A stretch of DNA of 64,000 nt from Eledone cirrhosa (lineage: Eukaryota), in contig OZ024743.1 in assembly GCA_964016885.1 (NCBI GenBank), forward strand, positions 350,424,001 to 350,488,000, in the 5' to 3' direction. Below are positions 55,212 to 62,500 of this stretch, piece after piece. The position numbers and the translations under genes are program-made. Each line of letters begins with the position of its first letter. Position 1 is the first letter of the stretch. The notes below the pieces were generated by a model that did not search any database, was not told where the DNA came from, and worked only from the letters and a program-made list of their open reading frames with translations.

Positions 55212-56105
55212 AAAAACAAATAACGAAACGAAATTAAATTTCGTTTCGCTTCTAACTCACTTTTGTATGACTGACGCTTAAACAATTAAGTTAAAGTGTA
55301 CATCTACATATGTATACGGAAGTATTAGTATGCATATAAATACACACATGTATACATATGTACATGTACTCAGCTTTTCACTAGACACTTTACAGTGAGT
55401 GTCAGCTAGTCTGTATGTAACCACACAGGCGGACCGGGTTTTAGAGTCATACGAGTTTTCAAGGAAACACATTTCCTCTATTCTCCAGAGGGCCAGACAG
55501 GAATATTGGACTAGTTACGATGTTATTACATCTCATCAGCAATATTTACCCATCTTCCGGCTTCTCTGGAGAATTGTAAAAGCACATATCGTTATATGCT
55601 TTTTCTATGAAAATTAGTAGTGGGTAGACTAATTTGCATAGAACGTGAGTCATTGTACGCACCGGTTCAGCGGAAACGATAAAAACAAATAACGAAACGA
55701 AATTAAATTTCGTTCCGCTGAACCGGTGCGTACAATGACTCACGTTCTATGCAAATTAGTCTACCCACTACTAATTTTCATAGAAAAAGCATATAACGAT
55801 ATGTGCTTTTACAATTCTCCAGAGAAGCCGGAAGATGGGTAAATATTGCTGATGAGATGTAATAACATCGAAACTAGTCCAATATTCCTGTCTGGCCCTC
55901 TGGAGAATAGAGGAAATGTGTTTCCTTGAAAACACATATGACTCTAAAACCCGGTCCGCCTGTGTGGTTACATACAGACTAGCTGACACTCACTGTAAAG
56001 TGTCTAGTGAAAAGCTGAGTACATGTACATATGTATACATGTGTGTATTTATATGCATACTAATACTTCCGTATACATATGTAGATGTACACTTTAACTT
56101 AATTA
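55212..56105. mobile_element. Fold-back HHR element built from a 469-bp monomer
   Basis: aaaaacaaataacgaaacgaaattaaatttcgtt at 55212 and 55681; inverted arm ~55712-56104. Confidence 0.9.
55842..55886 (+). ncRNA. Canonical minimal type I hammerhead ribozyme
   Basis: AAUAUUG|CUGAUGA|GAUGU-aaua-ACAUC|GAAA|CUAG|UC|CAAUAUU. Confidence 0.88.
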
Positions 56106-56488
56106 TATATATATATATATATATATATATATATATACAAATATAAATTAGCGAGAATCGTATTTCGGCTATTGGAAATTAGCGAAAAACAACTTCCGAG
56201 ATGTGTAGCAAGCGCTCAATAGATTCTAACGAACCAGAGCTACAACATACGTTAAAAGGCCAAACACACTGAGACGATGGTTAAACCATTATCCGCACAG
56301 CCATAGAAACGACCAAGTAATTCGGGTCAAATATATATATTCACGGTGTATATTAACCATGAACATGACAACCTAAAATCATTGACCACTCCCCGAAACA
56401 GATAAGAAAAACAACACATTTTTAGAATTGTTTCATTTGATACCTCTGACTTTTTTGGTGTTGACTGCATGCCCATATATGGACTGTA

Positions 56489-56580
56489 CCCCTTGATAAG
56501 TTCAGCTAGGTGCCTGCCGTCTTAACTGCTGGGTTAGTTCGGATCTAGGCGTTGAAACGGCCGGAACTCAGCCGTCGGTG
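56489..56580 (+). ncRNA. Diverged hammerhead, U3-A8 core, long stem II (family of 2656/7541)
   Basis: CCCC|UUGAUAA|..CAGCUAG...CUAG..|GAAA|CGGC-loop-GCCG|UC|GGUG; sister copies have GGGG and CUAGCUGUC, which restore the stems. Confidence 0.6.
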
Positions 56581-56656
56581 CCCTGACTTTTTTCCTATAT
56601 GTATATATATATATATATATATATATATATATATATATATATATATATATATATAT

Positions 56657-60393: not shown

Positions 60394-61100
60394 ATATATA
60401 TATATGTATATGTATATATATATATATATATATATATATATATATATATATATATATATATATGTATATGTATATATATATATATATATATATATATATA
60501 TATATATATATATATATATGTATATGTATATATATATGTATATATATATATATATGTATGCATATATGTATATATATATATGTATATGTGTATATGTATA
60601 TATGTATGTATATATATATATATATATATATATATATATATATATATATATATATATATATATATATATATATGTATATATATATATGTATGTATATATG
60701 TATATATATATATGTATATATATATATGTATATATGTATATATATATATGTATATATGTATATGTATATATGTTTATATATATATGTATGTATATATATA
60801 TATATATATATATATATATATATATATATATATATATATGATGGGTACCTCCTCGTTATCGAGTATGGCCATTGCACGATATACCTTTATATATACATAC
60901 ATACATATATACATATATATATATATATATATATATATATATATATATATATATATATATATATATATATATATATATATATATATATATATATATAGAT
61001 ATATATATATATGTATGCATGTATGTATGTATATATATATATATATATATATATATATATACATACATATATACATATACACACACATATATATATATAT
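60394..61100. repeat. (TA)n-rich microsatellite
   Basis: Simple repeat. Confidence 0.96.
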
Positions 61101-61375
61101 ATTATTAGAAATGTTAGCTATCGCCGTATTTTGACTAAAGAAATTAAAAAAATTATTTAGCCTGATAGTGGGGTTAAGAACCCTCGGAGAAATGGAAAAA
61201 GATGAGTATTGACGTACATGTACGTCAATACTCATCTTTTAAAATTTCCCCGAGGGTTCTTAACCCCACTATCAGGCTAAATAATTTTTTTAATTTCTTT
61301 AGTCAAAATACGGCGATAGCTAACATTTCTAATAATTTCAAATCCACTCGCTGTTTCGAAAATATTCTTACTTGA
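61101..61375. mobile_element. Fold-back element (~115-bp arms, no loop) plus tail in (TA)n; no convincing HHR
   Basis: Apex gacgtacatgtacgtc; arms 61101-61218 and 61219-61336. Confidence 0.8.
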
Positions 61376-61467
61376 TATATATATATATATAATATATATA
61401 TATACACACACACACACACACACACACACACACACACACACACATACATATATATATATATATATAT

Positions 61468-62500
61468 AAAAACAAATAACGAAACGAAATTAAATTTCGT
61501 TTCGTTTGTAACTCACTTTTGTATGACTGACGCTTAAACAATTAAGTTAAAAATGTACATCTACATATGCATACTGAAATACTAGTGTGTATATGAATAC
61601 ACACACGTATACATATGTAGGTGTAACGAGTCTTTCACTGGTTGCTTTACTGTGAGCAACCCAGCTATTCTGTATGTAAACACACAGACAAACCGGTTTT
61701 TAGAGTCATACTGGTTTTCGAGGAAACGCCTTTCCTCTATTCTCCAGAAAGCCAGACAAGGAATATTGAACTAGTTTCGTTGTTGTTACAACTCATCAGC
61801 AATATTTACCTATCTACCGGCCTTTCTGGAGAATCGTAAAAGCACATATCGTTATATGGTTTTTCTATGAAAATTAGTAGTGGGCAGACTAATTTGCATA
61901 GAGTGTGAGTACGCACCGGTTCAGCGGAGACGATAAAAACAAATAACGAAACGAAATTAAATTTCGTTTCGTTTGATACACACTAGTATTTCAGTATGCA
62001 TATGTAGATGTACATTTTTAACTTAATTGTTTAAGCGTCAGTCATACAAAAGTGAGTTACAAACGAAACGAAATTTAATTTCGTTTCGTTATTTGTTTTT
62101 ATCGTCTCCGCTGAACCGGTGCGTACTCACATTCTATGCAAATTAGTCTGCCCACTACTAATTTTCATAGAAAAACCATATAACGATATGTGCTTTTACG
62201 ATTCTCCAGAAAGGCCGGTAGATAGGTAAATATTGCTGATGAGTTGTAACAACAACGAAACTAGTTCAATATTCCTTGTCTGGCTTTCTGGAGAATAGAG
62301 GAAAGGCGTTTCCTCGAAAACCAGTATGACTCTAAAAACCGGTTTGTCTGTGTGTTTACATACAGAATAGCTGGGTTGCTCACAGTAAAGCAACCAGTGA
62401 AAGACTCGTTACACCTACATATGTATACGTGTGTGTATTCATATACACACTAGTATTTCAGTATGCATATGTAGATGTACATTTTTAACTTAATTGTTAT
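61468..62500. mobile_element. Fold-back HHR element built from a 467-bp monomer; both arms exceed one unit
   Basis: Redundancy 61468/61935 in the left arm and 61976/62443 in the right arm; homologous to 55212-56105. Confidence 0.9.
62229..62273 (+). ncRNA. Minimal type I hammerhead ribozyme
   Basis: AAUAUUG|CUGAUGA|GUUGU-aaca-ACAAC|GAAA|CUAG|UU|CAAUAUU; mirror copy in the left arm. Confidence 0.85.

Follow-up and report, generated by a model that had tools for sequence, protein, structure and literature searches.

Head-to-head copies of a hammerhead-bearing repeat in Eledone cirrhosa very probably represent non-autonomous Penelope-like insertions

RESULTS

Architecture of Copies A and B

The window analyzed here, a stretch of 64,000 nucleotides from Eledone cirrhosa (contig OZ024743.1 of assembly GCA_964016885.1, positions 350,424,001 to 350,488,000 of the forward strand), contains two insertions of a hammerhead-bearing repeat, copies A and B, each composed of two arms that are joined head to head (Table 1). 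The unit starts recur at 55212 and 55681 in copy A and at 61468 and 61935 in copy B, giving units of 469 and 467 bp, which recovers both lengths of the monomer family proposed in a first-pass annotation of the sequence. That annotation had copy B span 61468–62500; the start is retained, the end falls at 62498, and both arms of this copy do exceed one unit as had been claimed, measuring one unit plus 41 nt and one unit plus 56 nt. The units of A and B agree in 409 of 463 aligned positions (88%). Within each copy the arms are nearly identical, with three substitutions over 394 aligned nucleotides in A, one of which changes GAAA to GTAA at 55517, and a single substitution over 397 nucleotides in B; the insertions are therefore young.

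If the hammerhead strand is taken as sense, the 3' ends of the arms point outward in both copies. Both left arms finish on the identical base (site L), and the right arms finish upstream of it, by 72 nt in A and by 69 nt in B (site S). Two fixed 3' ends thus delimit a tail that is carried by one arm only in two of two copies, and L recurs in a distant relative, C1, and in assembled contigs of run X1. All four ends of A and B, and also both ends of C1, lie in (TA)n. Only the inner (5') ends vary between A and B. At the joint of A the right arm begins at unit position L+2 to L+8, within a 7-nt stretch common to both arms and with one T missing, and at the joint of B the arms overlap by 125 nt, having stopped at template positions L-41 and L-125. 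An inverted, 5'-truncated copy joined head to head is found in A, in B and in a second relative, C2. The first-pass annotation had seen the arms as running in different registers, a description correct for the inner ends only, the outer ends having fixed positions like those in insertions of Penelope-like elements (PLEs). It had also held that copies all starting and stopping at the same linear ends would speak against circular or multimeric RNA templates; half of this description applies, the outer ends being common to A and B and the inner ends variable. The 13-bp hairpin within the tail may be a signal for protein binding or initiation.

The high identity of the arms (99.2–99.75%) is also what a fold-back read or an assembly artefact would produce, and PLE structures are described as hard to assemble (PMC8557442). 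Such an origin is scarcely credible here, as the flanks past the TA tracts are not mirrored, the arms end at different, recurring sites, those of A differ at three sites, and the L end running into (AT)n is also present in separate contigs, though X1 may be the window's own sample.

The longest stop-free frames are 78 codons in A and 70 in B, and neither copy has a reading frame for reverse transcriptase (RT) plus GIY-YIG endonuclease. The unit is low in GC and self-paired, with a fold z of about -9.7 against 40 dinucleotide shuffles (-8.2 to -8.8 for the opposite strand).

Table 1. Coordinates of the insertions, their parts and related elements in the window
Feature	Position	Strand	Description
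Copy A	55212..56104	.	head-to-head inverted insertion, unit 469 bp
Copy A left arm	55212..55714	-	one unit + 34 nt; meets (TA)n at its 3' end, 55212 (site L)
Copy A right arm	55710..56104	+	less than one unit, about 391 nt; 3' end (site S = L-72) at 56104
Copy A tail	55212..55283	-	72-nt extension, one arm only
A left hammerhead	55502..55546	-	type I; GAAA to GUAA at 55517
A right hammerhead	55842..55886	+	type I; core intact, GUC triplet, predicted cut after 55879
(TA)n target tract left of A	55188..55211
(TA)n target tract right of A	56105..56145
Copy B	61468..62498	.	head-to-head inverted insertion, unit 467 bp
Copy B left arm	61468..61975	-	one unit + 41 nt; 3' end at site L
Copy B right arm	61976..62498	+	one unit + 56 nt; 3' end at site S = L-69
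Copy B tail	61468..61536	-	69-nt extension, left arm only
B left hammerhead	61762..61806	-	type I
B right hammerhead	62229..62273	+	type I; GUU triplet, predicted cut after 62266; 2-bp stem III with 2-nt loop in palindromic hexamer
13-bp hairpin in tail	62062..62090	+	finishes 10 nt ahead of site L; further copies at 55222-55248, 61478-61506, 61945-61973
(TA)n target tract right of B	62499..62561		left tract of B ends at 61467
C1	17230..17703	-	distantly related; not inverted; one unit of about 429 bp and about 45 nt more; hammerhead 17494-17538
C2	42296..42921	.	distantly related; inverted piece of 90 nt (42296-42385) plus a sense arm 1.30 units long (unit 416 bp); hammerhead 42681-42725
591-bp family	56660-60393		lies between A and B in (TA)n; arms of 4.33 and 2.00 units, head to head
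Family E inverted pair of pseudo-long terminal repeats (pLTRs)	17749..18291	.	in (TA)n; 60-nt tail on one arm
Family E 3' PLE frame	22567..23521	+	GIY-YIG part runs into hammerhead-bearing pLTR ending in (TA)n
Decayed PLE RT frame	53490..54520	+	hammerhead-like motif, then RT frame whose start matches the family E tail

Hammerhead Motifs in the Two Copies

Each strand of A and of B bears one hammerhead motif. The Rfam model HH9 matches all four, at 38.6, 38.6, 31.8 and 28.6 bits (E 3.7e-7 to 6e-4), all short of the gathering score, which is 52 for this model; at the gathering score there were no Rfam matches across the 64-kb window. The features of a type I hammerhead, namely the CUGANGA and GAAA boxes, an NUH triplet and three helices with helix I open, are intact in three of the four motifs, and helices I and II have pair probabilities of 0.65–1.00. 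The fourth motif, in the left arm of A, has GUAA in place of GAAA, as the first-pass annotation had noted along with the intact right arm; the change, confirmed at 55517, is private to this arm and arose after or during insertion.

Stem II reads GATGT-AATA-ACATC in A (55856–55869) and GTTGT-AACA-ACAAC in B (62243–62256), exactly the letters in which a compensatory A-U to U-A swap had been recognized earlier. A second difference, in the cleavage triplet (GUC in A, GUU in B), had been overlooked. The duplex of the palindromic hexamer at stem III has an energy of -4.8 kcal/mol and is formed in the dimer cofold of B and not in that of A. Hammerheads with a short palindromic helix III are said to require a dimer (PMC4209133), and the ribozyme of A and B is predicted to cut efficiently only in this state. 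As there is a single motif per strand, neither locus can release a unit-length monomer, and loci A and B are products, not sources, of unit-length RNA. A weak match to the hammerhead model on the minus strand at 63751–63811 (17.2 bits, E 0.02) is possibly a decayed relative.

Relatives within the Window

C1 has the TTT/ATCG 3' end of A and B, at the equivalent of site L, and is identical to B at 303 of 403 aligned columns (~75%), with an alignment score of -12 compared with -244 ± 22 for 30 shuffles. The joint of C2 lies within a 5-nt shared stretch, and its inverted piece stops 10 nt downstream of the predicted cut site (42718), as the 5' end of a cut RNA would cause; this is a single case and may be due to chance. 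In the hammerheads of C2 and C1 a U-U replaces the G-C at the base of stem II, and the cleavage triplets are GUA and GUU.

The 591-bp family has the layout of A and B, and its array contains three private substitutions in all. No hammerhead was found in it by Rfam at E<=5, by a relaxed pattern or by a model built from A, B and the C copies, a narrow model that also misses the motif of family E, and it has no reading frame above 86 codons. A link to a PLE clade without ribozymes, such as Naiad, is possible.

Selection on the RNA Fold

The first-pass annotation had read the stem II swap as selection on the RNA fold. Taken as proof, this single swap was rejected: of 200,000 simulations at the divergence of A and B, 6.9% produced one or more compensatory changes in the 12 stem pairs by chance, and 0.8% did so while leaving every pair intact. 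Nor is the hammerhead window more conserved than the rest of the unit, 42% of 45-nt windows having as few differences. The claim itself is better served by conservation of the fold over the whole unit and by compensatory pairs in C1 and C2. The 54 substitutions that separate A and B break 7 of 129 confidently predicted pairs of the A fold (null mean 18.1) and 3 of 111 of the B fold (null mean 15.3). When the substitution pattern was shifted circularly, none of 443 shifts did as well on the ribozyme strand, compared with 10 and 6 of 443 on the opposite strand. Compensatory changes over the unit number 2 for the A fold (0.87 expected, P 0.21) and 4 for the B fold (0.82 expected, P 0.007), three of the latter being adjacent in one hairpin beside an indel and perhaps a single event. 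With C1 and C2 added, the hammerhead alignment comprises five distinct rows, in effect three lineages; 6 of its 14 pairs change on both sides and 65 of 70 cells pair, which none of 500 shuffles match, and slid controls are 27–51% paired. C1 and C2 contribute compensatory pairs in stems I and II. These sequence comparisons support selection on the RNA fold, and such selection acted on the source elements, not on copies A and B. Covariation in animal and PLE hammerheads has already been reported (PMC4209133).

The same data bear on whether the repeat could move at the DNA level, as a Helentron/DINE-like or foldback element with a terminal hairpin, rolling-circle tandem units and a captured hammerhead. 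The hairpin 10 nt from the T-rich end, the AT-rich insertion site and the tandem units would suit such an element. Helentron/DINE-like elements have subterminal inverted repeats and a Rep-helicase partner; self-comparison of the unit showed only local hairpins and no subterminal inverted repeats. The type I hammerhead is conserved, the fold is conserved more strongly on the ribozyme strand, with G-U/G-C exchanges, and the layout is identical to that of family E, a PLE family of the window linked to an open reading frame. We therefore consider a DNA-level element very improbable.

Unit Junctions in Assembled Contigs

Contigs from four runs were compared with the unit; the library type of these runs is unrecorded, and summed depth is not copy number. 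The unit-to-unit junction at L is common to A, B and C1 and is spanned by contigs in X4, X5 and X6, and a joint across the end of the compared stretch was found in four of four runs. In X4 the depth of the junction-spanning contig is 167.7, next to 166.2 over the hammerhead. Six contigs of X1 have a loose end at 62102 (site L) that runs into (AT)n, and among the loose ends listed none leads from L into coding sequence. Because the junction at L is shared by A, B, C1 and the contigs, the unit propagates as a family in its own right and does not represent a rare product of deletion.

These observations discriminate against the idea that no self-propagating unit exists and that A and B are by-products of rare occurrence, in which pLTR pieces from an autonomous PLE became tandem by deletion or by duplication of DNA. 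Solo hammerheads, and opposite-strand hammerheads 100–700 bp apart, have been attributed to truncated PLEs (PMC4209133), and tandem repeats can form after insertion (bioRxiv 10.64898/2026.07.22.740005). A junction shared by copies that are 88% (A and B) and ~75% (C1) identical, its depth in X4 (as far as depth can speak), the lack of a listed end running from L into coding sequence and a fold conserved over the whole unit all point the other way, and we regard by-products as improbable.

The contigs also bear on the stem II pair. In X1, 16 contigs that make up 27% of summed depth have T in place of A at 62255, no change being listed for the partner position 62244; the cleavage triplet of the A type accounts for only 2%. 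One low-depth contig of X6 spans both positions and shows the change at 62255 and not at 62244, three of its four differences being listed. These data suggest a class with a U-U mismatch at this pair, its linkage not being seen directly. Pattern scans gave no matches in metagenome contigs or in viral contigs.

Other Elements in the Window

The frame at 22567 of family E has 37 relatives at E<=1e-10, including proteins with RT (PF00078) and GIY-YIG (PF01541) domains. The tail of family E matches the start of the decayed RT frame (53703–53779) at 79% over 77 nt, and this frame is 43% identical to P0006. Pfam returned no families for the frames at 22567 and 53710, though the homolog search recognized both. 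Family E is also present at 54912–55187, where it shares a TA tract with copy A, and its 60-nt tail was seen on one of four ends examined. Family E was considered and rejected as the parent of A and B, to which it has no sequence similarity; it shows their architecture, not their origin.

A further family, F, forms inverted pairs at 18314–18711 and 51536–51987, with a hammerhead-like core and, in both, an extension of 91–99 nt on the right arm; the joint of the pair at 51.7 kb is a small palindrome. Tail lengths in the window are thus about 60, 70 and 90+ nt. Other palindromic or inverted elements lie at 40485–41060, 61101–61375, 42052–42186, 7945–8100 and 52113–53038. The element at 61101–61335 has ~40 extra nucleotides on one side ahead of (TA)n, and 52113–52318 and 52833–53038 are perfect inverted arms of 206 bp.

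Direct repeats of 571 bp (97.9% identical) flank broken RT and zf-RVT-like frames at 11222–14692, adjoining (ACAT)n, in what we take to be an element resembling the retrotransposons without long terminal repeats (non-LTR) that target microsatellites. A non-LTR retrotransposon on the minus strand at 46613–50259 has an RT frame (PF00078, E 1e-21) and upstream frames. The exon-like open frame at 31844–32401 has no Pfam match and may be part of a host gene.

DISCUSSION

A Probable Non-autonomous Element with a Longer-than-unit Template

Taken together, the insertions very probably represent a non-autonomous PLE, or non-LTR retrozyme, copied from a template longer than its unit. The unit has the properties by which non-LTR retrozymes are recognized, being non-coding, a few hundred base pairs long, low in GC and self-paired, with one type I hammerhead per unit. 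A and B work like PLE insertions and are neither autonomous PLEs nor active retrozyme loci; they fail the test for an active retrozyme used in a recent preprint, which calls for two consecutive units with hammerheads (bioRxiv 10.64898/2026.07.22.740005). PLE insertions are described as containing an inverted, 5'-truncated copy and partial tandems, with a tail of 30–40 bp on one end only and a bias for (TA)n (PMC8557442, PMC3846280). A purified PLE protein has been found to cut both target strands and to extend them; it initiates at two neighbouring internal sites of the RNA, whose positions define the tail, and its substrate is mainly unprocessed RNA, ribozyme cleavage not being required (PMC11167929).

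In the mechanism that we propose, the non-coding hammerhead repeat would be copied in trans by the enzyme of a helper, probably a PLE. Once this enzyme had nicked a TA tract on both strands, two cDNAs would be primed at two fixed sites ~70 nt apart, L and S, on an uncut RNA of more than one unit, most likely a tandem transcript. The cDNAs would stop at variable points and then join far end to far end. In the resulting head-to-head pair the outer ends would be fixed, one arm would carry a tail and the inner ends would vary.

Several points weigh against this reading. No helper open reading frame is linked to the A/B unit within the window, and family E, as described above, was rejected as the parent. 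Site S rests on two copies, A and B, with C2 ending elsewhere, and it is not among the loose ends listed from the contigs. The tails of 69–72 nt are longer than the 30–40 nt described for PLEs. A target-site duplication is unreadable inside (TA)n. Finally, retrozyme RNA in other animals is largely circular (PMC7229834), and five of seven arms longer than one unit stop -3 to +56 nt from their own start, a pattern not expected of a linear tandem template.

Uncut Chain or Circle

A linear monomer cut by the ribozyme would offer at most 297–301 nt from L or 225–232 nt from S. The arms are 503, 391, 508 and 523 nt long, and all four read through the cut site; the template was therefore either uncut and longer than the unit, or a circle. 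The circular or multimeric template of the first-pass annotation stands as such an alternative, which does not tell a circle from an uncut tandem transcript. Junction reads, which had been suggested as a test of the circle, were rejected for this purpose, as every unit junction is already present in the DNA of copy B and in contigs. Both kinds of template are already in print (PMC7229834, PMC11167929). We hold the uncut linear tandem transcript with middling confidence. Multi-unit arms need no hammerhead here, because the 591-bp family forms arrays of 4.33 + 2.00 units with none detectable.

A circular RNA of 467–469 nt, made from a tandem transcript by dimeric hammerhead cleavage and host ligation and lapped at least once by an RT that stalls past its own start, is a somewhat less probable template. 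It draws its strength from the arm stops, which were compared for seven arms of more than one unit at five loci in three families (A left, both B arms, C1, C2 and both 591-bp arms). Five lie close to a whole number of laps, at +34 (A left), +41 (B left), +56 (B right), ~+45 (C1) and two units -3 (591-bp right arm). The two B arms stop at different template positions (L-41, L-125) and at similar offsets from their own starts, and the right arm of A stops where the left arm starts. The binomial chance of four of seven within 0.13 unit is 0.007 to 0.085, and that of five of seven 0.0006 to 0.017, depending on the processivity assumed, for a stop window that was chosen post hoc. Units of the 591-bp array differ only by single private changes. 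Circles have been shown for coral, mussel and axolotl retrozymes, and reverse transcription by PLEs into tandem cDNA has been proposed (PMC7229834). Against this, the sample is seven arms, of which two do not fit (C2 at 1.30 units and the 591-bp left arm at 4.33), and stops just beyond the tail hairpin can arise by joining at microhomology (7 nt in A, 5 nt in C2). No ribozyme is detectable in the 591-bp family, the dominant substrate of PLE protein in vitro is unprocessed RNA (PMC11167929), and only one of nine Xenopus dimer elements was cleaved in vitro (bioRxiv 10.64898/2026.07.22.740005).

A fuller version of this idea, which we consider unlikely, is that the insertions are footprints of a PLE enzyme that used both target strands as primers on a circular RNA of 468 nt, each arm being one lap plus 34–56 nt of strand displacement or a stop at the other primer. 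If true, such footprints would be direct sequence evidence, from an assembly alone, for the two unproven steps of the retrozyme model, the PLE helper and the circular template, and the circular template would apply to units without a ribozyme as well, the 591-bp family among them. Circle and uncut chain should be distinguishable from arm length modulo unit length across many genomic copies, a cheap test that needs only the genome. Twin priming of the L1 type was also considered and rejected; it fits the joints of A and C2 and not that of B, with its 125-nt overlap.

Comparison with Known Systems

The animal non-LTR retrozymes (Cervera and de la Pena, 2020, PMC7229834; Li, Clavereau and Pollet, 2026) resemble A and B in being non-coding, low in GC and self-paired, with one type I hammerhead per unit and more than one unit per insertion, and PLEs have been proposed to move them. 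The unit length found here falls inside the 51–972 bp of the 2026 preprint and slightly above the 150–450 bp of PMC7229834. A and B differ from the retrozymes of the latter paper, whose main text does not contain the word "inverted", in being head-to-head with up to ~1.1 units per arm. Cleavage and expression as monomers, both linear and circular, are described for animal retrozymes, whereas A and B are known here from DNA alone.

Endonuclease-bearing PLEs (Craig et al., 2021, PMC8557442; Arkhipova et al., 2013, PMC3846280; Frangieh et al., 2024, PMC11167929) share with A and B the head-to-head inverted and 5'-truncated copy, the partial tandem, the tail at one end, (TA)n, microhomology at the joints and a hammerhead upstream of the tail. 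Unlike these PLEs, A and B are without a reading frame and have the longer tail noted above; no match in terminal sequence was found between A/B and the PLE fragments in the window that could tie the unit to an autonomous RT + GIY-YIG element. Their joints are also unlike the self-priming palindromes described in rotifer PLEs. PLE hammerheads with a short palindromic helix III have been described (Cervera and de la Pena, 2014, PMC4209133), as have pairs of hammerheads on opposite strands 100–700 bp apart; those of A and B differ in that their helix I is 7 bp long and extended distally and their helix II 5 bp long, and are nearer to the canonical than to the minimal form. The non-autonomous Chlamys elements, such as MRC1 (PMC8557442), are likewise PLE derivatives that form pLTRs and multicopy head-to-tail insertions. 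They come from green algae, most are without hammerheads, and their 3' ends are common with known autonomous families; those of A and B match none of the PLE fragments in the window.

A literature search, run largely outside subscription papers, Repbase and supplements, returned no description of the A/B family or of an arm-length test; the portion of PMC8967140 at hand mentions Penelope and not ribozymes. The class is already described, and A and B are likely a new family within it. What these copies add is a unit of the retrozyme type that carries the tail and inversion specific to PLEs, a link at the level of the insertion itself, where the papers offer co-occurrence and pLTR phylogeny.

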